NCBI GenBank assembly: GCA_963741095.1
Contig: CAVUGN010000001.1
Span: forward strand, 32,001-96,000
Reading direction: 5' to 3'
From: an uncultured Candidatus Micrarchaeota archaeon
GTDB taxonomy: Archaea; Micrarchaeota; Micrarchaeia; Micrarchaeales; Micrarchaeaceae
DNA length: 64,000 bases
The notes below the pieces were generated by a model, which made no database searches, was not told where the DNA came from, and worked only from the letters and a program-made list of their open reading frames with translations. Below are positions 10,263 to 33,367 of the stretch, piece by piece; position 1 is the stretch's first letter; each line of letters starts with the position of its first letter. The position numbers were made by a program, and so were the translations under genes.

Positions 10263-11351
10263 TCACTTGAACTTCTTCTTTGCCTCTGACATAATCGCCT
10301 GGTAGCCCTTGTTGTATTCGAGTTCTTCGGGTATCAGCGTTGCCGGATGCACGAAGCCCTGCTCGCGCATGTACTCGGCCTTGATGACCGCCTTGTTCCT
10401 GAAGTAGTCCCAATCGGGGGTGTCGAAGGCGTCGACATGAGCGGTGAACTTGCCCTCGTGCATGCTGAAAAGCGTGCAGCTGACTATGGGAATGCAGAAG
10501 TTGCTGCTTGCTGCAGTTCCCGCCTTGACCGGCATGAGCGGCATGTGGTGGCTGCCGCGGGTATCGCCTGCGACATAGTGCGCCGTCTTGAATACCGAGC
10601 ATGTCTCTTCCGTAGCGGGGAATTCCTTCTGCAGCCTTACTATCGCCGCGGGATCGTCCTTCCCGATGTATGTGCCGGCTATGTTGTGCAGCCTGTCGGT
10701 CGTCGCAGCTATGATCGGATCGGTGGAGTTGCGCACGGAATCTATGACGTACCTGCCCGGATACATCAGCACCGCGGCTATGATGAAATTGTCCTGGGGT
10801 ATGCTGAACTCTGCTTTTTTGTCTTCCATGACGTCCATCACAGTCATCTTCACGCCGTTCGACAGCTTCGGATTCACTATGAGGCCGGTGTTGGCTGAAG
10901 GCTCGCAGAATAGCCTATAGAAAGGGAAGTTGAACGCGCCCGGCTCTGTCTTGTCCATCGTGAAGAGCGCGAAGGCCTCGTTCGGCCGCTCCTCGAACTC
11001 CATCTCAGCCACTCCAGGGCCCATGCCCTTGACGTTGCCGGAGAATGAGTCCTTCAGGAGATCCTGGCCTGCGCCGTAGAGGCCCTGCGACTTCGCGATG
11101 TCAGCGCCTGACTTCAGGGCGTCCCACGCGAGTTTGTGTATCTCCGCGTTGCCCGTGCCTCTTCTATGCGACATGAGTATGTGTATGTCGTCCCCGGTGT
11201 AGCCGAAATAGGCGTCTATCACTTCGAGCTTCTTCATGCCTTTGAGGACAAATGACCTTACGCCCTCGAAGAGCTCCTGGCTTGGTTTGGTGTGGCCTCC
11301 GACAGAGCCCACGTCAGCCTTTATCGCAGTTATCGTTATCTTCATTGACAC
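10263..11351 (-). CDS. fbp: Bifunctional fructose-1,6-bisphosphate aldolase/phosphatase (FBPase class V)
   Basis: Motifs IKADVGSVGGH, GDDIHILMSH, GLYGAGQDLLKDSFSGNVKGMGPG, DKTEPGAFN, YIGKDDP and RGSHHMPLMP. Confidence 0.95.
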   Translation of the reverse strand: MSMKITITAIKADVGSVGGHTKPSQELFEGVRSFVLKGMKKLEVIDAYFGYTGDDIHILMSHRRGTGNAEIHKLAWDALKSGADIAKSQGLYGAGQDLLKDSFSGNVKGMGPGVAEMEFEERPNEAFALFTMDKTEPGAFNFPFYRLFCEPSANTGLIVNPKLSNGVKMTVMDVMEDKKAEFSIPQDNFIIAAVLMYPGRYVIDSVRNSTDPIIAATTDRLHNIAGTYIGKDDPAAIVRLQKEFPATEETCSVFKTAHYVAGDTRGSHHMPLMPVKAGTAASSNFCIPIVSCTLFSMHEGKFTAHVDAFDTPDWDYFRNKAVIKAEYMREQGFVHPATLIPEELEYNKGYQAIMSEAKKKFK

Positions 11352-11430
11352 ACCTGAATAGAGGGTACTAATGCTATCTTAGTAGCAAATGATTAAATAT
11401 CTTGGATATGAATAAAACTGGGGGCGTAGA

Positions 11431-13077
11431 ATGACGAAGATATTTCTTGACACTGCCTCGCTGAAGGAAGTCGAGGAGGTCAACAGCTGGGGCATCATAG
11501 ACGGAGTCACTACGAACCAGAAGCTGTTTCTGCAGGAGGGCGGCATGGATTTCAAGAAGAGGGTCATAGACATCTGCAACATCGTCAACGGCCCGGTCAG
11601 CGTCGAGACGACAACCCACGGTGTCGAGGAGATGGTGGCGGAGGCGAAGGAGTACGCGAGCTGGAACAAGAACGTGGTGATAAAGGTCGCGATGTCCGCA
11701 GACGGCAACGGACTTAAGGTCGTCAAGAGGCTTACTGCACTGGGCATAAAGACCAACATGACGGTGATAATGACATTCAACCAGCTTGTCCTGGCAACGA
11801 AGGCAGGGGCGACTTACGTCTCGTTGTTCTACAACAGGGCGAAGGACGCTGGAGAAGACCCGGTCAGGATAATAAAGGACTACGCCGCATTCGTGAAGGA
11901 GAACGGCATCGGCACGCAGCTGATAGTCGGGAGCATAAGGAAGCCAGAGGACGTCAGCCAGTCGATCGCGGCGGGCGCGCACATCCTCACTATACCCACG
12001 AAGATACTCACGCAGATGCCCTTCCATCAGAGGACGGAAGAGACGATAAAGGAGTTCGACGATGCGTGGCAGGGTTTCATACAGGCGAACCCGCACGCGG
12101 TTTCAAGGACTCCGTTCAGGATATCCTTGGGCGGCGGCGGCACGGATCTCCCATCATATTACAAGGAGTACGAAGGCTTCTTCATCTCCGCTGCGATAAA
12201 CAAGTACATCTACGTGACGATACACAAGCGCTTCATGCCCGGATTGAAGTTCAGCTACTCGAAGACTGAGAATGTCATGAGCGCGGAAGAGCTGGAGCAT
12301 CCAGTCGTCAGGGAGGTCTTGAGGAAGTTCGGCATCAAGGAGGGCATCGAGATTGTTTCCTTGGCAGACATCCCGGCAGAGGCCGGGTTGGGGTCCTCTG
12401 GGAGCTTCTCGGTGGGCCTGTTGAAGGCGCTTTACGCTTACCAGAACGTGCAGAAGAGCCCCGCGGAGATAGCGGAGGAAGCATGCGACATAGCGATGAA
12501 CAGGCTCCACGAGCCGTCGGGCAAGCAGGACGAATACGCAGCGAGCTTCGGAGGCATAAACGCTTACAGCATTGACAGAGAGGGCAAGGTCACTGTCGAG
12601 GAGCTGAACCTTGACGACAACACCGTTGCTGAGCTCGAGAAGAACATAATGATGTTCTACACTGGGATAACCAGGAAATCGAGCGCCGTGCTCTCGAAGC
12701 AGCAGGAGAGGATATCAGATCCGAACACCGATGCTATGGAGAAGATGCACGCGATAAAGCGCATAGGATTGGAGAGCAAGAAGGCTCTTCAGTCAGGAAA
12801 CCTGAGAAGGTTCGGAGAGCTGCTGCACGAGCACTGGATGGTCAAGCGCGGAGTCACGGACAACATGAGCTCTGACGACATAGACCGCTGGTACGCCATC
12901 GCCAGGGAGAACGGAGCGATAGGCGGAAAAATAATCGGCGCTGGCGGCGGAGGCTTCCTGATGGTCTACTGCGAGGGCGACAAGCAGCGCATCGGAGAGG
13001 CCTTGGGAAAAGAGGGACTGACGCAGTTCGATTTCAAGTTCGATTTTGAGGGAAGCAAGACGGTCTACAACGTGTAG
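11431..13077 (+). CDS. Fusion of transaldolase (FSA/TalC type) and HddA-like D-glycero-alpha-D-manno-heptose-7-phosphate kinase (GHMP family)
   Basis: Residues 1-~218: IFLDTA, GVTTNQ, NVVIKV, TNMT, GSIR, GAHILTIP. Residues ~222-548: SRTPFRISLGGGGTD, GLGSSG, SGKQDEY, GAIGGKIIGAGGGGF. Single 548-aa frame with no internal start before the kinase. Confidence 0.88.
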   Translation: MTKIFLDTASLKEVEEVNSWGIIDGVTTNQKLFLQEGGMDFKKRVIDICNIVNGPVSVETTTHGVEEMVAEAKEYASWNKNVVIKVAMSADGNGLKVVKRLTALGIKTNMTVIMTFNQLVLATKAGATYVSLFYNRAKDAGEDPVRIIKDYAAFVKENGIGTQLIVGSIRKPEDVSQSIAAGAHILTIPTKILTQMPFHQRTEETIKEFDDAWQGFIQANPHAVSRTPFRISLGGGGTDLPSYYKEYEGFFISAAINKYIYVTIHKRFMPGLKFSYSKTENVMSAEELEHPVVREVLRKFGIKEGIEIVSLADIPAEAGLGSSGSFSVGLLKALYAYQNVQKSPAEIAEEACDIAMNRLHEPSGKQDEYAASFGGINAYSIDREGKVTVEELNLDDNTVAELEKNIMMFYTGITRKSSAVLSKQQERISDPNTDAMEKMHAIKRIGLESKKALQSGNLRRFGELLHEHWMVKRGVTDNMSSDDIDRWYAIARENGAIGGKIIGAGGGGFLMVYCEGDKQRIGEALGKEGLTQFDFKFDFEGSKTVYNV

Positions 13078-13102
13078 AGCGAACAGCATATGAGGTGAAA
13101 AA

Positions 13103-13702
13103 ATGATAGATGGAAAACACACACGTTCTTACCTCGCCGAGGTGAGCGAGATTGCGAAGAGGATAGACACCGATAGCGTGGACAGGTCCATACAGATACT
13201 CTACGAGGCTTGGAAGGACGACAAGCAGATATTCATCATAGGCAACGGCGGGTCGGCTTCTACGGCTACGCACTTCGCCAGCGACCTTAACAAATGGGTT
13301 TCTGAAAAGGCGGAGAGGAGGTTCAGGGCCCATGCGCTTGTCGACAACATACCGCTGGTCAGTGCGCTCACCAACGACAACGGCTGGAGCGAGGTGTACA
13401 GCGACCAGCTGCGCAATTTCTTCAGGAAGGGGGATGTTTTGATCGCTATCAGCGTGCACGGCGGATCCGGCAGCGACAAGGCCGGCCTTTGGTCGCAAAA
13501 CCTATTGAAAGCGGTAAAGTACGCGAAGGACAACGGCGGCAAGGTCGTCGGCCTTGCAGGTTTTGACGGAGGAGTACTGCGTACAGCAGCAGATGTGTGC
13601 ATAGTGGTCCCGGCGAATTCCACGCCACAGGTCGAGGGCATGCACCCGGTACTCGCACATCTGATGGGAGAGCAATTGCACGACATGATATCGAAGCAAT
13701 AG
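13103..13702 (+). CDS. gmhA: Sedoheptulose-7-phosphate isomerase (SIS domain)
   Basis: IGNGGSASTATHFASD, SALTNDNGW and PQVEGMH. GAGGTGA SD. Confidence 0.85.
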   Translation: MIDGKHTRSYLAEVSEIAKRIDTDSVDRSIQILYEAWKDDKQIFIIGNGGSASTATHFASDLNKWVSEKAERRFRAHALVDNIPLVSALTNDNGWSEVYSDQLRNFFRKGDVLIAISVHGGSGSDKAGLWSQNLLKAVKYAKDNGGKVVGLAGFDGGVLRTAADVCIVVPANSTPQVEGMHPVLAHLMGEQLHDMISKQ

Positions 13703-13708
13703 AAGGAT

Positions 13709-14398
13709 ATGATGGCTTCAGGAAAAGAGATGCTTGCCAAGGATACTGATTCTGCTGAGGTAAATGACGGAAAGGGTAGAGACAGAATAGCACTGGTGCT
13801 GCTCGACCGCGACGGTGTGCTAAACGACGTGGATGCAGAAGGGGTGCAGAAACTGTCGATGTTCAGATTGGTGCCTGGAGTTGTAAGCTCTCTGAAAAGG
13901 TTGAGCGGTGATAACTTCAGGGTCGGCATCGTGACCAACCAACCAGGCGTCGCTGAAGGAAAGCTGTCGGTAACGGATCTTGACGCAATGAATTGTATCC
14001 TAAAGGAGAAGGCAACAGAAGCAGGCATAATACCGGATAATTTCGTCATAGAGGTGTGCATGCACGGCAAGGATTCCGACTGCGACTGCAGGAAGCCTAA
14101 ACCGGGACTTGTGAAGAAGGTTGTGGAGAATTTCAAGTTGAACGTAAGGAATGTCGATTTCTATCTTGTCGGAGACATGATAAGGGAAGTGCAGACCCTG
14201 GACAATTATTACAATACGGTACTCAAGTCTATGGGGATAGGTCCGAAAGCCAAGACCACAATACTGCTCAACTGGGAGCATGGCAGGGACAAGGGCCACA
14301 TAAGCGATGAATTGAGGAAGCTCGTGACCCCGGACTACGAGGTGCACAGCCTTGACGAAGCTCTGAAGTTGATACAAAACAGAGAAAATGGCTTGTGA
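13709..14398 (+). CDS. gmhB: D-glycero-D-manno-heptose-1,7-bisphosphate phosphatase (HAD IIIA)
   Basis: LLDRDGVLN, IVTNQPG, Zn-binding CMH...CDCRKPKPG and VGD. Confidence 0.88.
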   Translation: MMASGKEMLAKDTDSAEVNDGKGRDRIALVLLDRDGVLNDVDAEGVQKLSMFRLVPGVVSSLKRLSGDNFRVGIVTNQPGVAEGKLSVTDLDAMNCILKEKATEAGIIPDNFVIEVCMHGKDSDCDCRKPKPGLVKKVVENFKLNVRNVDFYLVGDMIREVQTLDNYYNTVLKSMGIGPKAKTTILLNWEHGRDKGHISDELRKLVTPDYEVHSLDEALKLIQNRENGL

Positions 14399-14451: not shown

Positions 14452-15061
14452 ATCTACAAATACGGCGACATCGATGATGCAAAAGGATACATCGAAGGCA
14501 GCATAAAGGTACTTAAAAAGATGAAGGAGCAGGATGGAATCATCGAAGAGATTGCGAGCATGCTGGCCGCGACCAGGGACAGAGGCGGCACGATATACCT
14601 GATAGGCAACGGAGGCAGCGCATCCACTGCAGGGCACATGGCTGGCGATCTGACGAAGACGGTGAGCAGGTCGGACAAACGCGGCTTCAAAGCGGTCTCT
14701 TTGACCGATAACGTACCGACCATGATGGCATGGGCGAATGACCTGTCTTATGATGCCATATTCGAGGAGCAGTTGAAGAGCTTCATGACGGAGAACGATG
14801 CGCTGATAGCGATAAGCGGCAGCGGCAACTCGAAGAACATATTAAGGGCGGTGAAATACGCGAACAGCATCGGCGCCAGCACGATAGGCCTCACCGGCAT
14901 GGACGGCGGCGAGCTCGCGAAGATAGCAAAGATATCGTTCATAGTGCCGGACAATTCGATGTACAGGATAGAGGACCTTGCACCTGATGCTCGCGCACGT
15001 TATAGCGTTCAGGAGCGCAAACGCCTCGACAAGCCAGCACTCCGCGGTTTATGCGCCTTGA
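14452..15061 (+). CDS. gmhA: Second sedoheptulose-7-phosphate isomerase (SIS), with a +1 frameshift near 14978
   Basis: IGNGGSASTAGHMAGD, AWANDLSY and ISGSGNSKN. Removing one base restores 'IEDLHLMLAHVI' and a stop at 15061. The frame extends upstream of ATG 14521 to an ATC preceded by GGTGAT. Confidence 0.8.
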
Positions 15062-15075: not shown

Positions 15076-15800
15076 ATGAAGAACGAGGTACCGAAGATTG
15101 CGCTGATACTCGCCGGCGGCAGAGGGGTCCGGCTGAGGCCGTTGACTTACAGGATACCTAAGCCTCTCGTGCCGATAAACGGGAAACCCATAATAGAGCG
15201 CATAGTGGACGAGCTCATCAGGAACGGCATAAAGGACATCGTGATATCGATAGGGTACAAGGCAGGCATGATAATCAAGTATCTCGACAACGCGGGGCTC
15301 GACGCGAGGATAAGCTACGTGGTCGAGAAGGAGTCGCTGGGCACCGGCGGAGGATTGAAGCTATCGCTCAAGAGGATACGAAGCAGGTACAACGGCGACA
15401 TATTCCTTGTGTATGGAGACGCGGTGTTCAAGTTCGACATAAAGAAGATGTACTGCTTCCACAAGGAGAAGGATGCATTGATAACCATGGCGCTCAAGAG
15501 GAAGAAGGAGGTGATCGGCAGAGGCGTTGCCTTCCTCAAGGGCACAAGGGTTACGAAATTCATAGAGAAGCCAGTGCATGATTCTGCGCCGGAGGAGATG
15601 AGCGACCTCACAAACGCCGGAAAGTACATATTGAACACGAAGGTATTCAACCTGCTGCCGGACAGGAAGCGGTTCTCTTTCGAGCAGGATTTCCTGCAGA
15701 ACTCTGCACAGGACATCAACCTGCAGGGCTACTCACGAGGGCGAAGTCCTTCTCTATAGACACCCCGGAAAAGCTGGAAAAGGCAAGGAAGAACTGGTAG
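15076..15800 (+). CDS. Sugar-1-phosphate nucleotidyltransferase (HddC/GMPP-like), with a frameshift near 15733
   Basis: LILAGGRGVRLRPLT, PKPL, LGTGG, YGD, FIEKP and NAGKY. Adding one base restores the C-terminal 'SFSIDTPEKLEKARKNW*'. Confidence 0.8.
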
Positions 15801-15859
15801 AATCGGATGTGGATTCGCGCTTATAAAAGCATAAAAGGTTTGGCGTGCAAATAAGGATT

Positions 15860-16564
15860 ATGTTCAGCGGATTATACAATCGGATCGCCAGATCGGGGAT
15901 AACGAAACATCCAGTGGTTAGAAGCGCAAGGAGGTTCGTTTCCAACCGCTTGATAAGGCAGCCGATACTCGTGAACAAGTCGTTCTACATGTTCATCGAG
16001 GAGCACCAGCCGCTCAACATATTGATAAACAAGACTTACGAACCCGTGGAGACTGCAAGCGTGAATCGCGTCCTGAAGGAACGCATGGTGGGATTGAACA
16101 TTGGAGCCAACATGGGGTACTATTCCCTGCTGATGGCCCAGAAGTGCAGCAAGGTCTACGCCGTGGAGCCGAGCCTTCAGTTCTACAAGATCCTTGAGAA
16201 GAACATAGAGGCGAACAAGCTGAAGGGAAAGATAATACCGTACAACTTCGCCCTTGGGAAGGCTTCGGGGAACATAAAATTCAAGGCGCCCGTCGGGGAT
16301 GACATAATGGAGACGACGTCGGTCAAGCGGGTTAAGCTGGACGAGCTTTTCAAAGGGAAGCCGCAGCCGGACATAATAGTCATGGATGTCGACGGAGCAG
16401 AGGCGGATGTCCTGGCAGGCGGAAGGAAGACATTCGCAAACGCGAAGCACGTGTTCTTTGAGAACAACCTGGGCCCGAAGTTCCTGCAACAGTTCAGGGA
16501 CATGGGATTCGAAGTGCAGCCGATAGACTCGATGAATTTCTACGCGAGAAAGGGCCGCAAGTGA
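15860..16564 (+). CDS. FkbM-family SAM-dependent methyltransferase
   Basis: YEP, NIGANMGYYSL, VYAVEP and MDVDGAE. Confidence 0.8.
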   Translation: MFSGLYNRIARSGITKHPVVRSARRFVSNRLIRQPILVNKSFYMFIEEHQPLNILINKTYEPVETASVNRVLKERMVGLNIGANMGYYSLLMAQKCSKVYAVEPSLQFYKILEKNIEANKLKGKIIPYNFALGKASGNIKFKAPVGDDIMETTSVKRVKLDELFKGKPQPDIIVMDVDGAEADVLAGGRKTFANAKHVFFENNLGPKFLQQFRDMGFEVQPIDSMNFYARKGRK

Positions 16565-16684
16565 TTGTGATTCCTTGTCATTGGGCAAGGTATATATATT
16601 TCTTTGAGAAAATGATGATGCGGGAGGAAGGGCAGGTGGACGCATCCGCGTTCATGAGATTGATTTTGGAAATTGGGTTATAGA

Positions 16685-18034
16685 ATGAAGGTATTTTTGG
16701 TAAGCGCTCCTTCGGACACTCAGAAGCTCCAGCATAGGCCCTATCCGCTGGGCATCGCTTATCTTGGCGCTATCCTAGAGAATGCGAAGCACGAGACAAA
16801 GCTGTTCGATTATTTCAACGCGGAGATGGACAAGGTTGAGGAGGAGTTCATCAGGATGGTCAAGGAAGAGAAGCCGAACGTCATCGGCTTCAGCATATTG
16901 TCGATGAACCGCACCGCTTCGTTTGACCTTATCAAGAGGATAAAGAGCTTCGCGCCGGAAACGAAAATAATCGCAGGTGGAGTGCATTGCAGCGTGCTCT
17001 ACGAACAGTTGCTGAAGAACTTTCCCATCGAGGCGATCTGCCTTGGCGAGGGGGAGAACGTGGTCACTCCGTTGGTCGAGAGCATATTCGACAAGAAGGC
17101 CTTGAAGGATGTCAAAGGCATAGCGTACATGGACGAGAACGGCAACATCGCGGTGACTCCCGCGCCGGAGATGACGAAACTTGATGACGTGCCCTTCCCG
17201 AAGCACGATGTTTTCCTGACCGACAAGTCGAAAACGCTCTACATGATAACGAGCAGGGGCTGCGCGGGAAGGTGCGTGTTCTGTTCAACGACAAGCTACT
17301 GGAAGATATGGAGGACAAGGTCACCGAAGAACGTAGTGGACGAGATAGAATCCGTGAAGAAGAGATTCCCGAACATAGACACAATCTTGTTCCTTGATGA
17401 CGCCTTCACTTTGGACAACAATCGTGCCATCAACATCTGCAAGGAGATCATAAACAGGGGCATCAAGGTCAAATGGACCTGCCAGGCGCGAGTGACGCCC
17501 ATCTCTATGGAGATGCTGGAATGGCTTAAGAAAGCGGGCTGCACCGAGATAGCTTACGGCGTGGAATCGGGCTCGGACAGGATGCTGCAGGAGATGAAGA
17601 AGTACATAACGAGCGCACAAATAATCACGGCATTCGACCTCACCAGGAAAGTCGGGATAATACCCGACCCATATCTTATGATAGGATTGCCTTCGGAGAG
17701 CAACGAGACGATAAATGAGACAATAGCGTTATTGAAGAGGATAAAATGTGTGGCCCGCAGCGTTGCGATACTGGAACTATATCCCAACACGGAGATCTAT
17801 CGCATCGCGAAGGCGCAGGGATTCATAACCGATGATTATTGGTTGACGGATAAGCCGATCCCGATTTACACTTACGAACACTCTCTTCCGGACTTACAAA
17901 GGATGGTGTTTAAGATAGTTTATGAATCCCAGAAGAACGCCGGTTGGATACCGCTCTTCGAGTTCGGGATCAAACAGGTGCTTGCCGAACCGAGGAGGGT
18001 CTTGAGCATCATAAATACAATGAGGAAAAAATAA
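16685..18034 (+). CDS. Cobalamin-binding radical SAM enzyme
   Basis: N-terminal 'PLGIAYLGAIL...AGGVH...GEGE', then SRGCAGRCVFC (CxxxCxxC), DDAF and GVESGS. Confidence 0.9.
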   Translation: MKVFLVSAPSDTQKLQHRPYPLGIAYLGAILENAKHETKLFDYFNAEMDKVEEEFIRMVKEEKPNVIGFSILSMNRTASFDLIKRIKSFAPETKIIAGGVHCSVLYEQLLKNFPIEAICLGEGENVVTPLVESIFDKKALKDVKGIAYMDENGNIAVTPAPEMTKLDDVPFPKHDVFLTDKSKTLYMITSRGCAGRCVFCSTTSYWKIWRTRSPKNVVDEIESVKKRFPNIDTILFLDDAFTLDNNRAINICKEIINRGIKVKWTCQARVTPISMEMLEWLKKAGCTEIAYGVESGSDRMLQEMKKYITSAQIITAFDLTRKVGIIPDPYLMIGLPSESNETINETIALLKRIKCVARSVAILELYPNTEIYRIAKAQGFITDDYWLTDKPIPIYTYEHSLPDLQRMVFKIVYESQKNAGWIPLFEFGIKQVLAEPRRVLSIINTMRKK

Positions 18035-18036
18035 CG

Positions 18037-19104
18037 ATGATGGATGTGGCTAACCAGGACAAAAAAAGCGTTAACAGAAGCACATATGCGCTATTCAGGA
18101 GATACAAAAACCTGTTCGGCGGAGTGATGCCGATGGTAAATTTCCTGAACGGCATGTCCAGGCCGAAAAGGAAGATCATGCCGCTCCCGACATCAGCCCA
18201 GATAGAGGTCACTACGCAGTGCAATTTCAAATGCATCACCTGCGGCAGGGTGAGCATGAAGAACCGCCTGAATCTCAATCTGACGCCCGAACGTTTCGAG
18301 CATGTCCTTGACCAGAATCCGAATGTCAAGCGACTCACGCTCGTGGGTTATGGCGAAACGCTCATGGCACAGAATCTGCAGGAGATCATAGACATCGCCA
18401 AGAAAAGGAGCATAGACCTGACGACATTCACGAACGGCTCCCTGCTGCACATAGACAAGTATGCGAATCTGGCGATTCAGTTCAACGTGCTCGTGGTCAG
18501 TTTCGATGCGGCTGAGAAGGAGACCTTCGAGAGGATACGTGTGGGCAGCAACTTCGAAAAAACAAAAGAGGGCATAAGCAAGATAAACCGGATGAGAAAG
18601 GAGCAGGGGCGCGACATGTCCTTGCGCATCAATTTCATCGCCTCGCACTTGAACTACAAAGAGATACCGAAACTTGCAGACATCTGCATGGAAACCGGAG
18701 TTGATGAGATAGGCATAGGCGAAGTTGCGAATTTTTACACGCCGGGAGAGCCGGAGTATGCGGAGATGGCTAGTTTTGTGCGCGAGGGCAGGAAGATGCA
18801 CAATGAGATTCTCGCAAGCATCGATCAATTAAGGGAGAGGCTGAAGAACACCGATAAAGTCCTGTCTTACAGCCCGTACAGGAAGGTAAAACCGATCTGC
18901 AGGGGCCCTTTTGACACTTTTTCGATGGCTGCGGACGGGCATATCACCCCATGCTGCATGAGATACAATCCGGAAATAATAAATTTCGGCAACATAAACA
19001 AAACAAGCTTCGCGGAGATATGGAACGGCGAGGGCTACCAGAAATTCAGGGAGAGCATGATAAAAGGCACTTCGAATCCGATTTGCGACTGCTGCCCTGA
19101 TTGA
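18037..19104 (+). CDS. Radical SAM enzyme with SPASM/twitch domain
   Basis: EVTTQCNFKCITC, GYGETL and TNGSLL. C-terminal CRGPF...DGHITPCC...FGNI...EIWNG...CDCC. Confidence 0.88.
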   Translation: MMDVANQDKKSVNRSTYALFRRYKNLFGGVMPMVNFLNGMSRPKRKIMPLPTSAQIEVTTQCNFKCITCGRVSMKNRLNLNLTPERFEHVLDQNPNVKRLTLVGYGETLMAQNLQEIIDIAKKRSIDLTTFTNGSLLHIDKYANLAIQFNVLVVSFDAAEKETFERIRVGSNFEKTKEGISKINRMRKEQGRDMSLRINFIASHLNYKEIPKLADICMETGVDEIGIGEVANFYTPGEPEYAEMASFVREGRKMHNEILASIDQLRERLKNTDKVLSYSPYRKVKPICRGPFDTFSMAADGHITPCCMRYNPEIINFGNINKTSFAEIWNGEGYQKFRESMIKGTSNPICDCCPD

Positions 19105-19169
19105 GAGGCCGGCACGAACGCATAAACTTTATATGTGTGCTGTGATTTACTAGGTATACGTTGGATTCC

Positions 19170-25147: not shown

Positions 25148-25365
25148 TGTATCATTCCGGCGCGCAAGCGCCATCCGATCAGGATGTGAAATGCCTTTGC
25201 GCAGCCTCAAAGCCGAGACTGTGCGTGCACATTCACCCCGACAATTTAGTATAGGGGCTTAACATACTTTATATCTTATGCTGGGGCGGGCTTAGTATTA
25301 TTAATTTGCTATGTTCTAACCATAATAGTCGTGTTAAGTGCGTCATTGTTTTAGGTAACGATCCA

Positions 25366-26860: not shown

Positions 26861-27931
26861 TTATCCACCAGAAATTACTTTTTCGTACACTTTCATTGTC
26901 TCTTCGGCGGCCTTGTCCCATGTGAAGCCCTGCGCGTAGCTGGCTGATTCTTTCATTGCTGTTTTGTCGTAGCCTTTCTTGTAGAGATTGTAGAACATGT
27001 CGGCCATCTCCTCGTCTGTGTAGGCCCTCATGCAGTGCTTGCTCACTTCGCCCGGCACTATGCCGTTGCCGTTTATTATCACTGGTAGACCGCAAGCCTG
27101 CGCCTCTATTATCGGTATGCCGAAGGTCTCTGCGAAGCTCGGGAAGGCGAAGACGTCGAAGGAGTTGTACATCCTGACTTTATTCTCCTGCTTCACCGGT
27201 CCCATCATTTTTATGTTGCTGTGATCCTTCGCGATGCTCATTATCTCCTGCATAAGGTGCTTCGTGCCAGGCTTCCCGTGCAGCTGGAGCTCTACGTTGC
27301 CCTGCTCCTTCTTGCCGAGCATGTTATTGAATGCAATGAACGCGTTTATCAGGAACCTGGGATCCTTGTTGGGCGACATCCCGCTCAGCGTGCCGATGAC
27401 GAACTTGTCGTGGCTCAAGCCCATCGGCTTGTATTCCGGGGTGACCCCGTGATTGACCACGAATATCTTGTCGCGGTCGACGTCCGCGAAATCGATCATG
27501 AGCTGCTTGACGTTCGATGAGACCGCTATGATCGCGGCAGCGCGCTCCATCTTGTACTGCGTGCTGTACTGCCCCAGCTTTATCCATATGTCCTCGCTTA
27601 TGCTGTGGTCGCCCTTCTGTATGAGCAGTATGTCCTTTGTCATGAAGCTGCTCAGGCTGTGCATCGTGAATATGAATTTCTTGCTCATCTCCCTGCTCAG
27701 CGAGATGAGTGATCCTCCGTCTATGTCGTGTATTATGTCGACCGATTTTGCCATCCCGGTGAATCTTATCCTGTAGGAATCGAGCAGCGCGGTGGCAACG
27801 TTGGTGTACGGCATGTAGCTCAGCGAGACGCGCTTGTCCATCCTGCTGAGCAGCTCCGTGGTGAAGGTGCCGTTACCCGGCGCGACCTCCTTGCTCAGGT
27901 TGTTCCTGTGCGTGATTATCATTGTGCGCAT
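26861..27931 (-). CDS. Glycosyltransferase family 4
   Basis: IIAVS, VVNHGV, FPSFAETFGIPIIEAQACGLPV and FTWDKAA. Confidence 0.9.
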   Translation of the reverse strand: MRTMIITHRNNLSKEVAPGNGTFTTELLSRMDKRVSLSYMPYTNVATALLDSYRIRFTGMAKSVDIIHDIDGGSLISLSREMSKKFIFTMHSLSSFMTKDILLIQKGDHSISEDIWIKLGQYSTQYKMERAAAIIAVSSNVKQLMIDFADVDRDKIFVVNHGVTPEYKPMGLSHDKFVIGTLSGMSPNKDPRFLINAFIAFNNMLGKKEQGNVELQLHGKPGTKHLMQEIMSIAKDHSNIKMMGPVKQENKVRMYNSFDVFAFPSFAETFGIPIIEAQACGLPVIINGNGIVPGEVSKHCMRAYTDEEMADMFYNLYKKGYDKTAMKESASYAQGFTWDKAAEETMKVYEKVISGG

Positions 27932-27935
27932 TGGC

Positions 27936-29114
27936 TCACTGGTTCAGCATGTCCGTGAACTTCGATATGAACTTCTTCTCGCTATACCTGTCCTTTATGA
28001 GTTTATAGATTTTGAGTTTCCTGTCAAGGTATGCCTTGCCGTCCTTCTCGTGCGATTTGAAGAGGGTCAGTATCGCCTCTGAGAACGCGTCTACGTCGAA
28101 AGGCTTTACCAGCGTGCCCTGGGCGCCGGCCTTGATTATCTCGTTCGGGCCGGACACGTCAAATGCCACGGCAGGTATGCCGTAGCTCTGCGCCTCCAGG
28201 AGCGACAGGCCCGTCGTCTCGTACCTTGAGGGCAGGATGAAGAGGCTTGACCTCTTGTACTCGTTCTTCAGCGACGCGTCCGAGACGAAGCCGCGCCATG
28301 ATACGTTGCCGCGGTATTTGCGCTCCAGCCCCCTGACGATCGTTTCGCCGTCGTCCTTGGAGCCGATGATTCGGAACTTGATCTGCCCGTTCTTCTTGAG
28401 CGTCTTCCCTATTATCGTTTCCAGAAGGTCGATCCCTTTCTGCAGCACCGCTAACCTTCCCACAAAGAGGCATACGAATTCTTTGTTTGCCGCATTGGGT
28501 TTTGCGGACTCGAAGTAGAGGAAATGCGGGATGTGATAGACTTTTCCCTTGTAGTTCAGCCTGTGCAGCATGTGCACCTGCGTTTCGGTGAGCGCGTGCA
28601 CCTCCTTCACCCGCTTGAGCAGGAATTTCTGCACCATGTTCAGCACGGGACCGCTGTCTCCGCCCTTTTTCTCCATTAGGAACTCGGGGTTGTGCATCCC
28701 GAGTATGAACCGTTTTCTGTAGACCCTTGAAAGCAGCAACGAGTATGATATGAGCACAGGGTTGAGGGTTATGTCGTAGACTATGTCCGAATCCACTATC
28801 GCGCTCTTCAGCTTTGACAACTCCCTGGGCTTCGGCATGCGCATGGTGAACCTGCCGGTGTTCTTCAGCTTCGTCTTCACCCCGTAGCATTCCACATCCA
28901 CTATGTCTATGCCCTTGAGGTCGTAGGTCCTGAGCAGCTCCTGTTTCGATATCCTGATGTTGTCGCTCCGTGAGACTGGATTGACGATGGTGATGTCGAA
29001 ATCCTTTTTGATTCGCTCTGCCGTTTCCAACGCCCAGCGCTCGCCACCCCCGAATGACTGGAGCGTGTTGAGTATCATCGTGAGCCTTTTCTTGGGCGCC
29101 CTTTTGGTTTCCAT
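27936..29114 (-). CDS. Glycosyltransferase family 4
   Basis: GGGERW, FVGRL...QKG and LPSRYETTGLSLLEAQSYGIPAV. Confidence 0.9.
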   Translation of the reverse strand: METKRAPKKRLTMILNTLQSFGGGERWALETAERIKKDFDITIVNPVSRSDNIRISKQELLRTYDLKGIDIVDVECYGVKTKLKNTGRFTMRMPKPRELSKLKSAIVDSDIVYDITLNPVLISYSLLLSRVYRKRFILGMHNPEFLMEKKGGDSGPVLNMVQKFLLKRVKEVHALTETQVHMLHRLNYKGKVYHIPHFLYFESAKPNAANKEFVCLFVGRLAVLQKGIDLLETIIGKTLKKNGQIKFRIIGSKDDGETIVRGLERKYRGNVSWRGFVSDASLKNEYKRSSLFILPSRYETTGLSLLEAQSYGIPAVAFDVSGPNEIIKAGAQGTLVKPFDVDAFSEAILTLFKSHEKDGKAYLDRKLKIYKLIKDRYSEKKFISKFTDMLNQ

Positions 29115-29120: not shown

Positions 29121-30173
29121 TCATTTCTTTCTCTGCTTCTCGTACTCCTCTTTTATAAGCTCTATCAGCAGGTCGCCGTTCGGCTTCCTGTTGCCGTATT
29201 TCCTGTTAAGCTTTTGTATGGTCGCCTCCTTGTCAAGGCCAAGGTACTTGACAACGCCGGTCTTGTTTATTATCTTGGATATCTCGAACATCTCGTCCGC
29301 GTCGGGCTCCTTCCTCCATTCGTTGACTCTTTTGAGGTAGACGGTCTCTTTCTGCAATGCGCGCATCACGCTCTTTATGTTCTGCCGCTTGAGCGCATAG
29401 CCCAGATCCAGCAGGGTGTAATACATGAAATAGTCGAAGTTGCTTATCTCCTCGTCCTGTTTCTTCATTATCACGGTCTCATAGCCGAGCATGAGCGAGT
29501 TTATCACGCCGCCTAGGAGGGTCTTGTCCACGCTCCTGCTCTTGGGCATCAGCAGCTTCGAGACGTAGTCCATGACGCGCTTGTTGTACAGCCCGTACGA
29601 CAGCCTGTCCAGCTTCAGCATCTTCTGGTATTCTTCTCCGTAGTTAATCGTCTTCAGCTCAGCCACGTGGTCCATTGAGTATCTATCATCGAGCTTCTCG
29701 GTCGTGCCCTTGACAGTGGCCTGCTCGTGAAGGAAGCCCTTGAACTCGACCAGCTCCTTCCTGAAGAGCCTTATCTGCCAGGTATAGAACCCGGTTCTCT
29801 TGCCCTTGGCCACATCCTCGTACCTCTTGATGGCAAAGGCGCTGCATTTCGCATCGCCTATTATGCTCTTTATCTTGGACTTGAGAGCGGTGTTCAGCCG
29901 CTCGTCGGTGTCGATGAGCAGGACCCATGAAAATCTGCATTTCTTGAAGGCGTACATTCTCAACGCTTCCAGAGGGGCGAGCGAGACGACGTAGAATATC
30001 TGCAGCTTGCCCAGTTTCTGGCTCTTTTTTGCCGCGTGCAGCCTGTTTCTGTTCGCCTTGTTGCTCGAGTCCATGAGCACTATGTCATCGGCGACATCGT
30101 AAAGGTCGTTGACCAGGCCTAGGGTTTTCTCGACCTCGTCCCGCGAGAATATCAAAACCGAGAGTTTTTGCAT
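29121..30173 (-). CDS. Glycosyltransferase family 2 (WaaE/LgtF-like GT-A domain plus helical C-terminus)
   Basis: KLSVLI, MDS, WVLLIDTDERL, QIRLFR and GFLHEQ. Confidence 0.72.
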   Translation of the reverse strand: MQKLSVLIFSRDEVEKTLGLVNDLYDVADDIVLMDSSNKANRNRLHAAKKSQKLGKLQIFYVVSLAPLEALRMYAFKKCRFSWVLLIDTDERLNTALKSKIKSIIGDAKCSAFAIKRYEDVAKGKRTGFYTWQIRLFRKELVEFKGFLHEQATVKGTTEKLDDRYSMDHVAELKTINYGEEYQKMLKLDRLSYGLYNKRVMDYVSKLLMPKSRSVDKTLLGGVINSLMLGYETVIMKKQDEEISNFDYFMYYTLLDLGYALKRQNIKSVMRALQKETVYLKRVNEWRKEPDADEMFEISKIINKTGVVKYLGLDKEATIQKLNRKYGNRKPNGDLLIELIKEEYEKQRKK

Positions 30174-30239
30174 TGGAAACACGTCGATTATAGATAAGAA
30201 TAAAAAGGTTAAAAGCATATTTATACCGCTTGTGATCTA

Positions 30240-31439
30240 TTGAGACTAGACAGCGGTTCGCACCCAAACCTGTACAAGCTGGGAATGAAGCTGCATAGCA
30301 TAAGTCCTGATCTTTGGGATTACGGCCTGCAGACCCTAGCGTTGCCCAGCCAGCTCTCTTCGGAAGCGAGGATGCGGTTCGGGGACAGGCGCAAGGCCGG
30401 GAAGATGAATGGCGCAGTCATAGAGCTGACGGTGCGGTGCAACCTAAGGTGCAGCATGTGCTGGTGGTGGGGCGAGAACGGAATAGCGTTCAAGCTGATG
30501 AAGGAGAAGCATCCGCTAGTCGCCAACGAGCTCACGACAAAAGAGATATTCAACGTGGTCGACCAATTGGAGGAGTGGAAGCCTTCCATATACCTATCGG
30601 GAGGTGAGCCGTTCATAAGGGACGATACTGTCGACATAATCGAGTACATAACCAAAAAAGGCATGTCGGTCATCACGAACGACAACGGGACGATACTCGC
30701 CGAAGACAAGCTGCAGAGGCTTGCGAAGATAAAGAACCTGACGATCAACTTCTCGATAGACGGGCCCAAGGAGATACACGACAAGATACGCGGCCAGGGG
30801 ATGTTCGACAAGACTGCCAGAACCATAAGGCGCCTGCTCGAATTGAGGGGCGACTCGATATATCCGGCCATCAAGACCAACACCACGTTCTCGCCATGGA
30901 TAGTCGGCAGCATAGACCCGCTGATAAGGTACCTGCAAGACGATGTCGGCGTCGATGCGGTAAGGATGCAGCACCTCTGGTTCACCGATAAGGAGCATGC
31001 AGAAGCGCACAAGAAAGTGCTCAAGCAGATATTCGACGCGAATGAGACGGGAGTAGATTCGCACATCATCTCGACCCCGGAGCCGGACTATCTGGAGAAG
31101 CTGGCCGATGAGATAATCAAGGTCGAAGGCACGAAGTACAAAAAACCGGTGTTCATACACCCGAGGCTCACGAAGGAACAGATAAAGAAGTATTACACCG
31201 ACCTGCTTTTCATGAAAAGGGATCGCTGCCTGATGGCCTGGGATTCGGTGCAGATAAAGGCGGACGGCAGCGTCGTCTTCTGCCCGGACGAATGGATAGC
31301 CGACTTCAAGCTCGGCAACGTGAGGGAGACCAGCATAAAGGAGATGTGGAACGGCGAAAAGGCGGGCAAGTTCAGGGAAGAGCTTTACAAACGGAAACTG
31401 TTCCCGGCGTGCGCCAGATGCTGCGCCCTGAACGGATGA
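30240..31439 (+). CDS. Radical SAM enzyme with SPASM/twitch domain
   Basis: ELTVRCNLRCSMC, SGGEPF and SIDGPKEIHDKIRG. C-terminal C...DGSVVFCP...LGNV...WNG...CARCC. Confidence 0.9.
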   Translation: MRLDSGSHPNLYKLGMKLHSISPDLWDYGLQTLALPSQLSSEARMRFGDRRKAGKMNGAVIELTVRCNLRCSMCWWWGENGIAFKLMKEKHPLVANELTTKEIFNVVDQLEEWKPSIYLSGGEPFIRDDTVDIIEYITKKGMSVITNDNGTILAEDKLQRLAKIKNLTINFSIDGPKEIHDKIRGQGMFDKTARTIRRLLELRGDSIYPAIKTNTTFSPWIVGSIDPLIRYLQDDVGVDAVRMQHLWFTDKEHAEAHKKVLKQIFDANETGVDSHIISTPEPDYLEKLADEIIKVEGTKYKKPVFIHPRLTKEQIKKYYTDLLFMKRDRCLMAWDSVQIKADGSVVFCPDEWIADFKLGNVRETSIKEMWNGEKAGKFREELYKRKLFPACARCCALNG

Positions 31440-32258
31440 TCAGGCCTTCGTTGCGAATATTATCCCGCTCCCCCTGTTGAGATCCTTGTCCCTGAGCTCG
31501 ATCTCGAATCCCTTCTTCTTCAGGAAATCGGCCATCTCGCCCCTCTTCCTGCCGCCCACTTCGTGGTACTCCATGCAGATGTAATCTACGTCGAAATCCT
31601 TGTCGCGCATCTCTTTTATCATGCCCCATTCGCTGCCCTCGGAATCCATCTTGAGTATGTCGACATGGCCCACCTTCTTCAGTATCGCGCTCATCGTTGT
31701 GCTCGTGACGAGCTTGTATCCCTCTCTCCCGCGGGCGTCGTTGCCCGCCCTGACCGTGGAGAACGAGACTGAGCTTTTGCTCGTGTAGAGCTTCACCTTG
31801 CCCCGGGTGCCGCCCACGGCAAGATTCAGCGGGACTATCCTTCCGGCGAGCTTGTTCGCCCTTATGTTCTCCTTCATCAGGTTGAAGTTGCTCATGTCCG
31901 GCTCGTAAGCGTAGACCTTCGGCATCTTCAGCGCGCTGCAGGCGTAGAGCGAGAACAGGCCTATGTGCGCGCCTATGTCCAAGACGGTAGGCTTGGCCCT
32001 GTTGCGCACGCTCTTCGGCAGCCTGCTGAAGTAGGGCTGCCCGAGGAATATCTCGAGGAATGTCTCCATGTCCGCGAGCTTGTTCTGCCGCATTATTATC
32101 TTGAGCCCGTCCTTGGTCTCGACCTCGTAGGTCCGGTCGGGCAATGCGATTCCGGCTTTGTTCAGCATGAAGAAGTACATGAACTCCGGCCAGCTTGCAG
32201 CTGACAGCGAATTGAAGTACATGCCAAGCGTGTCAAGGTTCGTGATGGCGTTGTCCAT
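31440..32258 (-). CDS. FkbM-family methyltransferase
   Basis: LDIGAHIGLFS, VYAYEP, LKMDSEGSE and MEYH. Confidence 0.88.
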   Translation of the reverse strand: MDNAITNLDTLGMYFNSLSAASWPEFMYFFMLNKAGIALPDRTYEVETKDGLKIIMRQNKLADMETFLEIFLGQPYFSRLPKSVRNRAKPTVLDIGAHIGLFSLYACSALKMPKVYAYEPDMSNFNLMKENIRANKLAGRIVPLNLAVGGTRGKVKLYTSKSSVSFSTVRAGNDARGREGYKLVTSTTMSAILKKVGHVDILKMDSEGSEWGMIKEMRDKDFDVDYICMEYHEVGGRKRGEMADFLKKKGFEIELRDKDLNRGSGIIFATKA

Positions 32259-32419
32259 GGAAGATGCACATTTGATGTTGTTGATTCGGCTGTTATTGTC
32301 TGTACAAATTTAAAAAGACCGCATATCTTAGGGAATAGACGGAAAGCTATTTAATTGGGGGTACCCAGTACTATAACGTCAGTGGGAGTGCGTATTCTGG
32401 CGCGTTTTGCGATGATGGA

Positions 32420-33367
32420 ATGAACTACGGCGTTATAGATTATCTGTTCGGCGTCTACGGCGGATCGAAGGAGCTGCCACACATAATGATGGTCGCTAAG
32501 AACTGGTACACCGTTGCGCTCTTCCATCTCGGATTGGTGTCGTCGTTCTACCTCAAGGTGAGGGGCGAGAAGGACAAGAAGGTCTGGATAGGCAGCTACG
32601 CCGACTACGACAGGTTCTGGAGGGACACAGGCAGCATGAAACTGCTTGAGAATTCGGATGTCTACAAGAGGGTGAAGATAAGGAAGGATTTTGTGGAATT
32701 CTCTTACAAGGGAAAAATACTCAGGTTCTTTTACGAAGGAAACGCGCAGCTCATTGACGCGATAAGCCTGATAGGCGAGCAGTTCTGGAGCGATGCTTAC
32801 AAGCGCCTAGAGGCCAAGGGCAACACCGTCATCGACGTAGGCGCCAACGTCGGGGATTCCGCGGTATACTTTGTCATGAACGGCGCAAAACACACCTACG
32901 CCTTTGAGCCTTACCCTTACGCCTACAGGAAGGCTGTGCGCAACATCAGCACTAACGGGCTGGGCGGCAAGATCACCATGATAAACGCAGGATGCGACGG
33001 CAAGGACACGCACATGACGCTTGACGATGGGCTCAGGAGCAATTCGGGCAGCAGATTGGAGAAAGTGAAAAGCGGCAAGAGAGTGCCCATGCTCTCGCTC
33101 GATACGATAGTGGAGAGGTACTGCAAAGAGGATGCGGTGCTGAAGATGGACTGCGAAGGTTATGAGTACCCGGCGATACTGAAGGCGAAGACGGCAACGC
33201 TCAGGAAGTTCAAGCGCATGATGATAGAGTACCACGACGGCTACAGGAATCTGGAGGCGAGGCTGCGAGAGGCCGGGTTCGAAGTAAGGCACGACAGGCC
33301 CAACACGATATCGCATTCGCATCACTTGGTGGGCCTCATGTTCGCGCGGAGAATCGATGCGAAGTGA
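32420..33367 (+). CDS. FkbM-family methyltransferase
   Basis: IDVGANVGDSA, YAFEP, LKMDCEGYE and IEYH. Confidence 0.88.
   Translation: MNYGVIDYLFGVYGGSKELPHIMMVAKNWYTVALFHLGLVSSFYLKVRGEKDKKVWIGSYADYDRFWRDTGSMKLLENSDVYKRVKIRKDFVEFSYKGKILRFFYEGNAQLIDAISLIGEQFWSDAYKRLEAKGNTVIDVGANVGDSAVYFVMNGAKHTYAFEPYPYAYRKAVRNISTNGLGGKITMINAGCDGKDTHMTLDDGLRSNSGSRLEKVKSGKRVPMLSLDTIVERYCKEDAVLKMDCEGYEYPAILKAKTATLRKFKRMMIEYHDGYRNLEARLREAGFEVRHDRPNTISHSHHLVGLMFARRIDAK

Follow-up and report, generated by a model that had tools for sequence, protein, structure and literature searches.

Two sugar-activation modules of different ancestry, one led by a transaldolase-kinase fusion, in a candidate surface-glycan island of a Micrarchaeote

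The described systems closest to the locus treated here are the nucleoside diphosphate (NDP)-heptose pathway of GmhA, HddA, GmhB and HddC, the GDP-octose route of lincosamide biosynthesis and the heptose-bearing protein glycans of prokaryotic surfaces. The N-glycan of Thermoplasma acidophilum contains D-glycero-D-galacto-heptose (PMC11407970, PMC12448462), a heptose gene cluster near S-layer genes was noted in 'Iplasma' in 2013 (PMC3750248), and the bacterial S-layer of Kuenenia bears heptose oligosaccharides (bioRxiv 10.64898/2026.04.15.718822). In the lincomycin pathway, LmbR joins a three-carbon unit from the donor fructose 6-phosphate (F6P) or sedoheptulose 7-phosphate (S7P) to the acceptor ribose 5-phosphate (R5P), and LmbN, LmbP, LmbK and LmbO are the isomerase, kinase, phosphatase and nucleotidyltransferase (PMC5854111, PMC12945683). 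Together they form the one characterised pathway in which these four enzyme kinds come with a private transaldolase. Among Micrarchaeota, Micrarchaeum A_DKE, the one cultivated member examined in this respect, has a glycosylated S-layer, and the accessible sections of its description report that no activated-sugar synthesis was found (bioRxiv 10.1101/2021.04.28.441871). In those of a survey of 39 Micrarchaeota and Parvarchaeota genomes, heptose appears only in the name of a transferase and gluconeogenesis is reported absent (PMC5864196). Here we describe an island of about 23 kb, some 2% of a 1.08-Mb genome, that lies in a 64,000-nucleotide stretch of an uncultured Candidatus Micrarchaeota archaeon (GCA_963741095.1, contig CAVUGN010000001.1; positions 32001-96000 of contig C1 of our genome G000), hereafter the window. 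It is a mosaic of two sugar-activation modules that differ in ancestry, and it most likely builds seven-carbon and perhaps eight-carbon, heavily modified sugars for the protein coat.

The genes named in a preliminary description of this DNA were recovered with Pfam and NCBIfam models at their positions (Table 1), with amendments that concern gene fusions, a GT2 glycosyltransferase and AglB. The first amendment is also the most informative. A transaldolase and two HddA-type kinases had been listed, and all are present, but the transaldolase and the first kinase form one open reading frame (ORF) of 548 aa, with a TAL_FSA match of 144.5 bits at residues 4-210 and a GHMP kinase at residues 225-544. 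This fusion is real and not an artefact of assembly. One independent contig (X1) spans 12033-12603 across the junction with zero differences, a second (X2) spans 11980-12239 with 25 substitutions and no gap, and seven protein-database clusters at 85-95% identity are all 548 aa long and carry all three domains; independent contigs and seven near relatives thus establish the fusion as genuine. The frame is also open over fusion residues 1-248 in the same-genus genome G001 (contig C120), where the DNA is 88% identical, and one further 548-aa fusion protein with all three domains was found at 43% identity and 99% coverage. Elsewhere the two parts occur separately. GmhA1, transaldolase and kinase are adjacent but unfused in relative G007, and a metagenome scan with the fusion as query returned 24 loci, all with unfused kinases (59-67% identity) and none on a long contig of a near relative. 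As a natural 'Rosetta stone', the fusion would link transaldolase function to sugar activation in a cassette that is found in many phyla, where databases label its members as heptose genes.

We refer to the transaldolase-kinase, GmhA1 and, probably, GmhB as module A, and to GmhA2, HddC, HddA2 and the short-chain dehydrogenase/reductase (SDR) epimerase as module B, which by sequence relationship falls within a Micrarchaeota/Thermoplasmata clade. A quick IQ-TREE kinase tree was built from 87 rows: both window kinases, 9 kinases of relatives and, out of 80 loci, 76 ORFs that aligned over at least 250 residues and were shorter than 420 aa. HddA2 falls in a clade (clade B; SH-like approximate likelihood ratio test, SH-aLRT, 95) in which 15 Thermoplasmata rows are intermixed with 10 DPANN rows, the latter being 8 same-order relatives, 1 Micrarchaeota record and 1 Parvarchaeota record. 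HddA2 itself is 53-55% identical to Thermoplasmata kinases. The fused kinase belongs to a separate clade (clade A; SH-aLRT 99), together with a Micrarchaeia record, G035, Myxococcota and Actinomycetota. Among the 120 listed closest unfused relatives of the fused kinase, which are 61-69% identical, the 7 that are named are all Nitrososphaerota/Thaumarchaeota, and Nitrososphaerota loci share the neighbour genes of module A. Their copies are 65-70% identical to the window protein for the transaldolase, 65-77% for GmhA1 and 59-65% for the kinase, and 30-37% for GmhB and 33-37% for HddC. In a GmhA tree of 56 rows, GmhA1 is placed among Nitrososphaerota (SH-aLRT 93 and 90). GmhA2 entered this tree with its first 156 residues and pairs with that of family relative G022 (54-56% identical) as its sister. 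The single heptose pathway first proposed for this locus is not borne out by the kinase and GmhA trees, which resolve two modules of different ancestry.

Of 40 same-order relatives, 10 yielded a kinase at 38% identity or more, and the nine relatives' loci usually comprise GmhA, an HddA2-type kinase, GmhB, HddC and an SDR; the SDR beside HddA2 in G020, G022 and G036 is 53-55% identical to that of the window. In another Micrarchaeota record (L150, 9244-12600), a divergent transaldolase, a clade-A kinase, a clade-B kinase and a GmhA follow one another. With tandem kinases, one from each clade, the two-kinase arrangement therefore recurs.

All four NDP-heptose families are present and clustered in 11431-20195, and the best NCBIfam matches of all four enzymes are heptose families. 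The scores lie under the curated cut-offs, being 178.7 and 143.2 bits for HddA (cut-off 600), 101.2 and 106.3 bits for gmhA (209.45), 106 bits for GmhB with NF006506 (178) and 114.1 bits for HddC (300), so equivalence to the heptose enzymes is not established by them. For GmhB, the broader model TIGR01656 exceeds its cut-off (99.8 against 84.15 bits). Conserved residues are largely kept: GmhA1 retains 19 of 20 conserved columns, with Y for F at one, GmhB retains D-x-D-G and the Cys/His cluster, and HddC retains G-x-G-x-R and K. The nearest solved structures to HddA2 are the heptose kinases 3K85, 4USK (WcbL) and 4N3O (Campylobacter jejuni), and those to GmhA1 are phosphoheptose isomerases. Canonical GmhA has no counterpart to a stretch that GmhA1 and its clade possess in the active-site region. 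The SDR had been described as HldD-like. An extended SDR epimerase is indeed encoded, but it scores 152.1 bits with heptose_epim (cut-off 274.6), and the solved structures WbgU and WbpP (1e-36) are nearer to it than HldD (1e-22); we list it as a putative nucleotide-sugar epimerase.

What module A makes is the central question, and the transaldolase bears most directly on it. It is of the TalC/MipB type and closer to proven transaldolases than to fructose 6-phosphate aldolases (FSA): its nearest structures are the true transaldolases 1VPX, 3R8R and 3S0C (E 2e-48 to 1e-40), with FSA matches at about 1e-15, and TIGR00875 gives 184 bits, under its cut-off of 245.95. Tblastn detected no second transaldolase in the genome. 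Where the pentose phosphate pathway exists, a private transaldolase is unneeded for S7P. A transaldolase nevertheless lies within 10 kb of the clade-A kinase in 55 of 80 loci, or 46 of the 60 that are at least 12 kb long, at a median distance of 2.8 kb. Among loci from the HddA2-led alignment it does so in 5 of 80, and four of these five hold a kinase of the transaldolase-linked clade, L106 falling outside. Each of the five cassette-bearing genomes tested has 2 to 3 full-length transaldolase matches, of which that of the cassette scores lowest (a fourth match in G156 is a 40-bit fragment), and the higher-scoring paralogues indicate that a housekeeping transaldolase exists besides. Because module A is linked to a dedicated, extra transaldolase, it looks as much like the lincomycin GDP-octose route as like one to heptose. 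The lincomycin logic fits the cassette at least as well as an S7P supply for heptose does. Within the genome (94% complete), the only match to transketolase is an E1 dehydrogenase (293 bits) and no phosphoketolase was found, so erythrose 4-phosphate (E4P) is without a visible source. By analogy with the lincomycin enzymes, we put the octose reading of module A at or somewhat below an even chance and the heptose reading slightly lower. If one module served seven-carbon and the other eight-carbon sugars, this would account for the presence of both clades of isomerase and kinase in one locus, and for the tandem kinases of L150. Module B would be an ordinary heptose module, and the choice between a C7 and a C8 product of module A is a testable question.

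The setting of the island points to the cell surface. The S-layer gene that had been reported upstream is there, and its product has 18 N-x-S/T sequons in 1036 aa (1.74 per 100 aa). The membrane protein that opens the window has 14 in 685 aa (2.04 per 100 aa), and the background in 29 other window proteins is 0.49 per 100 aa. Heptose genes stand beside an S-layer gene in relatives G035, G037 and G038, and the adjoining S-layer homologues in G035 and G037 are 39-43% identical to that of the window. The assignment of a surface-glycan island beside an S-layer gene is thus upheld by relatives' synteny, by sequon enrichment and by the variant described below. Other upstream assignments held in part. 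For the proposed GT-C gene there is a gene at the place, but the GT-C call comes solely from language-model leads (DUF6311, YfhO-like); a 41%-identical homologue lies beside GmhB in G020, and a paralogue is found on contig C4. What was called AglB is a divergent STT3-like gene that scores 35.4 bits against a cut-off of 450, with no Pfam STT3 match and W-P-D-G at the WWDxG position. It contains three frame changes, a 737-aa homologue from G037 covering it in frames 1, 3, 2, 2 and 3, and the canonical STT3 of the genome is on contig C5. Between the S-layer and STT3-like genes, 5501-7483 encodes a 660-aa protein of a multi-copy family with members on C1, C2, C4, C5 and C11 (more than 15 matches in the genome at 26-47% identity, several in tandem, with a weak Ig-like match only), and it is probably a variable surface protein.

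Glycosyltransferases are found further along. The three GT4 genes stand as described, by Pfam. The GT2 gene gave no Pfam or NCBIfam match, and its GT-A fold is indicated by a model and a fold search: 27 of 30 atlas neighbours are in GT2 sets, and an AlphaFold (AF2) model with 5 homologues reached a mean confidence (pLDDT) of 72.6, with values of 87-96 over most of residues 21-130 (79 at 81-90). Foldseek matched it to SunS, ThuS, TarP, TarS, RmlT and ArnC (E 6e-8 to 6e-5), with a probability of 1.00 for SunS, TarP and ArnC, and D105 and E106 of the acidic motif after strand 4 are invariant in all five homologues. A variant of the right part of the island is carried by the 17.2-kb contig C3 (L037, 1-17238). 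The flank of ABC permease genes is 96% identical in DNA, and the B12-binding radical S-adenosylmethionine (SAM) gene 2 (B12-rSAM2), GT4c, the GT-A gene and FkbM6 are 70-81% identical (a value of 85% was also obtained for the B12-rSAM2 copy); SPASM2 and FkbM7 are missing. The left part of C3 holds deoxy- and amino-sugar genes (a 4,6-dehydratase fragment, a sugar C-methyltransferase, an RmlD-like reductase and a DegT aminotransferase) as well as two GT2 and one GT4. This pattern is suggestive of allelic replacement, as in the hypervariable surface-glycan loci of the O-antigen kind, and C3 may be a co-binned strain allele or else a second locus.

The tailoring enzymes are numerous. Seven FkbM methyltransferases had been counted, and all seven exceed the Pfam PF05050 cut-off of 22.7 bits; the six submitted to TIGR01444 exceed its cut-off as well. 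They lie within 17.5 kb, with only two further Pfam matches in the rest of the 1.08-Mb genome, so the clustering is not due to chance. Pairwise identities of 24-41% among the FkbM proteins, 31% between the two B12 enzymes and 24% between the two SPASM enzymes are low, which indicates old paralogues and not recent copies. Three of the tailoring genes (FkbM1, B12-rSAM1 and SPASM1) sit between HddC and HddA2 inside a run of nine co-directional genes at 11431-20195, with intergenic gaps of 6-122 nt, and are thereby tied to the sugar pathway. Both B12-type enzymes have an N-terminal B12-binding domain and a radical SAM core with CxxxCxxC. The two SPASM enzymes combine such a core with a C-terminal Cys-rich auxiliary-cluster domain (57.5 and 58.1 bits; 6 or 7 C-terminal Cys in SPASM1 and 5 in SPASM2). 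None of the island's radical SAM enzymes attains an NCBIfam equivalog cut-off. The nearest solved structures are OxsB (E 1.4e-23), 9CCB and AprD4 for B12-rSAM1, and 9CCB, AprD4 and TokK for B12-rSAM2; SPASM1 is nearest to BtrN (E 5.7e-8), and SPASM2 has weak matches to SkfB and anSME only. The sugars on which OxsB, AprD4 and BtrN act are those of nucleosides or aminoglycosides, and none of the three is known to methylate them. For the B12 enzymes, sugar C-methylation had been raised as a possible activity, a view that the structural comparison does not favour, since the nearest relatives are OxsB, 9CCB and AprD4 and the methylases TokK, CysS and Trp C2-methyltransferase score lower. C-methylation would be one option among methylation, dehydration, oxidation and rearrangement.

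How widely these enzymes travel with heptose genes differs by family. The expectation that both FkbM and radical SAM genes accompany heptose genes in relatives held for FkbM, with four of nine relatives' heptose loci, but not for B12 radical SAM genes, with none of the nine. B12-rSAM homologues (E up to 1e-20, at most 39% identity) were detected in 17 of 150 other genomes of the phylum; within the own family, 1 genome of 45 has one. In other Micrarchaeota their neighbours are SDR, nucleotidyltransferase or GT4 genes in five of eight genomes (9 stretches). A heptose-type kinase and a B12-rSAM gene are found no more than 10 kb apart in 6 of 80 loci of the HddA2-led set and 3 of 80 of the clade-A set. 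Our literature search on radical SAM enzymes and heptose turned up a single item, a gene list for C. jejuni HS:19 in which an uncharacterised radical SAM protein belongs to a capsule/methylation cluster, and that on FkbM turned up no report of a link to heptose capsular polysaccharide.

Taken together, we consider it probable that the locus is a mosaic, strain-variable surface-glycan island of about 23 kb, with two sugar-activation modules and an S-layer acceptor; substrates, products and acceptor are inferred from gene content and linkage. The transaldolase of module A would make the ketose phosphate itself, either S7P from E4P or, in our judgement slightly likelier, octulose 8-phosphate from R5P in the manner of LmbR, and the fused kinase and GmhA1 would process it. 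GmhB and HddC would be common to both modules. The activated sugars, or a growing lipid-linked glycan, would then be tailored by the seven FkbM methyltransferases, with further modification by the two B12-type and two SPASM/twitch radical SAM enzymes and the SDR. Assembly would fall to the three GT4 and the one GT-A transferase, and AglB or the adjacent STT3-like protein would transfer the glycan to the S-layer protein and other surface proteins. A more far-reaching version, which we regard as doubtful, holds that heptose and octose are both made, the octose through the fusion from R5P; that the radical SAM and FkbM enzymes yield undescribed branched or deoxygenated methylated S-layer sugars; and that the modules came from Nitrososphaerota and Thermoplasmata as likely hosts or neighbours, giving a coat that copies host-type sugars and varies between strains.

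The main competitor is a single NDP-heptose pathway with redundancy, in which the transaldolase only supplies S7P, as the pentose phosphate pathway is missing from this reduced genome, the second isomerase and kinase are leftovers of gene transfer, and all sugars are heptoses that are later methylated and radical-modified. We consider this unlikely, though the family matches named above all point to heptose and JGI labels the homologues of the fused kinase heptose-7-phosphate kinase. The resemblance to true transaldolases and the adjoining fructose 1,6-bisphosphate (FBP) aldolase/phosphatase also suit it, and without a transketolase S7P would be no free by-product in this genome. The same absence, together with that of phosphoketolase, cuts the other way, as S7P synthesis by transaldolase needs E4P. 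Nor does simple supply explain why the cassette keeps its own transaldolase across long bacterial and archaeal loci and as an extra paralogue in genomes where S7P should be plentiful, and leftovers fit poorly with the recurrence of two kinases in L150 and with the distinct active-site-region stretch of the GmhA1 clade. It is far less credible that the island makes a small, secreted or cell-bound glycoside of the aminoglycoside or lincosamide kind on a higher-carbon sugar, and no protein-linked glycan. The nearest solved relatives of three of the radical SAM enzymes do come from nucleoside and aminoglycoside antibiotic pathways, and in the accessible literature transaldolase-led logic is known only from lincomycin (PMC5854111). 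Yet the island has four glycosyltransferases, adjoins S-layer and STT3-like genes and has a variant allele of the O-antigen-locus kind; relatives hold heptose genes beside S-layer genes, and Pfam scans of the island found no aminotransferase, nonribosomal peptide synthetase (NRPS), cyclitol synthase or resistance gene. Equally improbable is salvage or catabolism, in which heptose from host glycans is taken up, one kinase activates it for re-use, and the isomerase and a reversed transaldolase feed glycolysis. Micrarchaeota are reported to be host-dependent for activated sugars (bioRxiv 10.1101/2021.04.28.441871), heptose is present in the N-glycans of Thermoplasmatales hosts (PMC12448462), and the NCBIfam runner-up for both kinases is fucokinase, a salvage enzyme. 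Against this, the island contains no glycoside hydrolase or sugar transporter, the BPD_transp_1 permeases (Pfam) of the adjoining ABC system have no assigned substrate, and catabolism would leave 7 methyltransferases, 4 radical SAM enzymes and 4 glycosyltransferases unexplained.

Several observations weigh against the two-module surface-glycan island that we favour. All heptose-family scores are under NCBI's curated equivalog cut-offs, and the window transaldolase is near ordinary transaldolases (1VPX, E 2e-48) and keeps their pattern. No RpiA was found in the genome, which leaves the source of R5P as unshown as that of E4P; as RuBisCO was not found there either, R5P would need nucleoside salvage. 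The grouping of GmhA1 with Nitrososphaerota comes from a quick tree, with SH-aLRT of 90-93 under the 95 mark. B12 radical SAM genes are absent from all nine relatives' heptose loci, no FecCD-type B12 uptake gene was found in the genome, and no flippase, initiating transferase or dolichol gene was seen in the island. ORF boundaries elsewhere in the genome may also be affected by single-base indels, which are present in this assembly.

A second apparent fusion reflects these indels. Two GmhA genes and an HddC-like gene had been described, and all are present, but GmhA2 and HddC form a single ORF (14521-15759) only through an indel; the fusion was rejected as a product of a 1-base error in this assembly. 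Frame 0 of GmhA2 lacks the conserved C-terminal helix with two His that is present in 46 of 47 homologues. From about 14978 the +1 frame supplies this helix, followed by a stop, and HddC has its own ATG at 15076. Single bases at 14980 and 15075 are missing from the independent X1 contig (depth 3.2), the helix reads in frame in a diverged strain (X5 loose end), and HddC stands alone, at 240-249 aa, in its 7 closest homologues (68-97% identity). The STT3-like gene may owe its three frame changes to similar indels, and the permease gene of C3 has one frame change (L037, about 16350-16440). Fusions among these families do occur elsewhere: G022 has a GmhB-HddC fusion of 483 aa (L022:15139-16590), and in bacteria GmhB, GmhA and HddC are joined in triple fusions of about 630 aa, while genuine GmhA-HddC fusions there measure about 460 aa (proteins P0131-P0145).

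Table 1. Genes of the island and its upstream flank, with window positions, strand and supporting evidence
Feature	Position	Strand	Evidence
Polytopic membrane protein, sequon-rich C-terminal domain, 5' end outside window; possible GT-C	1..2058	+	no Pfam/NCBIfam match; atlas leads DUF6311, YfhO-like
S-layer protein, likely glycan acceptor	2342..5452	-	S_layer_C 80.6 bits
STT3-like (AglB paralogue-like) membrane protein gene, three frame changes	7918..10241	+	archaeo_STT3 35.4 bits (cut-off 450)
FBP aldolase/phosphatase, divergent from sugar operon, 79-nt gap	10263..11351	-	PF01950 477 bits
Transaldolase-kinase fusion: transaldolase in residues 3-216, clade-A heptose-type GHMP kinase in residues 222-548	11431..13077	+	Pfam, NCBIfam
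GmhA1, SIS isomerase, transaldolase-linked clade	13103..13702	+	Pfam, NCBIfam
GmhB-like HAD-IIIA sugar bisphosphate phosphatase, the island's only one	13709..14398	+	NF006506 106 bits; TIGR01656 99.8 bits
GmhA2, SIS isomerase, frame shift near 14978-14980 in this assembly	14521..15061	+	+1-frame helix, X1 contig
HddC-like sugar-1-phosphate nucleotidyltransferase, own ATG	15076..15759	+	NTP_transferase 117.9 bits
FkbM methyltransferase 1	15845..16564	+	PF05050 47 bits; TIGR01444 85.4 bits
B12-binding radical SAM 1	16673..18034	+	B12-binding 66.3 bits; Radical_SAM 81.5 bits; CxxxCxxC at residue 197
SPASM/twitch radical SAM 1, start uncertain, 91-nt overlap with previous ORF	17944..19104	+	CxxxCxxC at residue 93, C-terminal Cys-rich domain
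HddA2, clade-B heptose-7-phosphate kinase type	19161..20195	+	Pfam, NCBIfam
FkbM methyltransferases 2 and 3 (at 20223 and 20975)	20223..21700	-	Pfam, NCBIfam
Extended SDR nucleotide-sugar epimerase (putative)	21701..22597	-	Epimerase 182.8 bits
FkbM methyltransferases 4 and 5 (at 22621 and 23439)	22621..24149	-	Pfam, NCBIfam
GT4 glycosyltransferase a	24146..25210	-	Pfam
B12-binding radical SAM 2	25306..26853	+	Pfam, NCBIfam
GT4 glycosyltransferases b and c (at 26861 and 27936)	26861..29114	-	Pfam
GT-A (GT2-like) glycosyltransferase, helical C-terminal domain	29121..30218	-	model and fold search, no HMM match
SPASM radical SAM 2	30240..31439	+	Pfam, NCBIfam
FkbM methyltransferase 6	31440..32258	-	Pfam, NCBIfam
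FkbM methyltransferase 7	32420..33367	+	Pfam, NCBIfam

The genome is in 11 contigs, and the window encodes both a CDP-archaeol synthase and the archaeal FBP aldolase/phosphatase, which identify the organism as an archaeon; kinases of its same-order relatives group with Micrarchaeota, Micrarchaeia and Parvarchaeota records. The 20 listed sequencing runs that bear the locus are soil, peat, rhizosphere and permafrost metagenomes, with no RNA run among them. The host is probably a small-genome soil or peat archaeon of the Micrarchaeota, and its lifestyle is probably symbiotic. A same-genus genome (G001) carries only two fragments of the island. The start of the island had been placed at 10263; a gene is present there, but the position is the end of the FBP aldolase/phosphatase gene, which had not been listed. 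This enzyme is a possible source of F6P, and its gene was not found in the nine relatives' heptose loci. Its presence is of note in its own right, as the genome encodes it although gluconeogenesis was reported absent in the Micrarchaeota surveyed in 2017. A foreign origin of the island by base composition was rejected, its GC content of 0.49-0.55 not being distinct from the flanks. Elsewhere in the window, 40001-44000 has a GC content of 0.41-0.45 against 0.50-0.57 around it and encodes two ORFs, one of 478 aa that matches no family and one that resembles DUF6036 nucleotidyltransferases; this stretch may be foreign DNA. An IS66-family transposase (110.5 bits; G000:C1:30258-31568) lies directly before the membrane protein gene that opens the window and is a possible mobile boundary of the island.

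A soil Micrarchaeote that devotes some 2% of its genome to making and decorating its own higher-carbon sugars would change the picture of what such symbionts need from their hosts. The kinship of the modules to Nitrososphaerota and Thermoplasmata offers testable hints on the partners of soil Micrarchaeota. Should the product of module A be an octose, many environmental 'heptose' annotations would be wrong and eight-carbon sugars would be common surface components. The archaeal heptose glycan put forward in the preliminary description is not new as such, heptose being already known in Thermoplasma, and the enzyme kinds are known; this combination of them is undescribed. Our literature searches found no such pathway described in DPANN archaea, and no report of a transaldolase-led surface-sugar cassette or of radical SAM tailoring of archaeal heptose.

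Compared with the NDP-heptose pathway, the island has the same four families, with heptose enzymes as the nearest solved kinases and isomerases, and the genes would likewise serve a surface glycan beside an S-layer gene. It differs in scoring under the equivalog cut-offs, in having isomerase and kinase twice, from two clades, in the fusion of a kinase to a transaldolase and in its DPANN host. In Campylobacter, heptose tailoring is carried out by cupin epimerases and SDR reductases, unlike the radical SAM and FkbM enzymes of the island. The LmbR/N/P/K/O route of Streptomyces lincolnensis offers the same five enzyme kinds and a linked, dedicated transaldolase, a likeness in enzyme kind and gene linkage (PMC12945683, PMC5854111). 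Here, however, the transaldolase is fused to the kinase, the setting is that of a surface-glycan locus instead of an antibiotic cluster, and GmhA1 is without the carrier-protein domain described for LmbN (PMC12945683). The sugar-tailoring radical SAM enzymes OxsB, AprD4, GenK and BtrN share the domain make-up of the island's enzymes, OxsB and AprD4 being near the B12 types and BtrN near SPASM1; identity is low, and the substrates in the island would be higher-carbon sugar nucleotides or lipid-linked glycans. The T. acidophilum N-glycan and the 'Iplasma' cluster share with the island archaeal heptose protein glycans, which the island is predicted to make, and HddA2 lies in a Thermoplasmata-dominated clade. 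The Thermoplasmata loci analysed differ in being without the transaldolase, the B12 radical SAM and the FkbM set, and their SDR neighbours are 28-38% identical to the SDR of the window.

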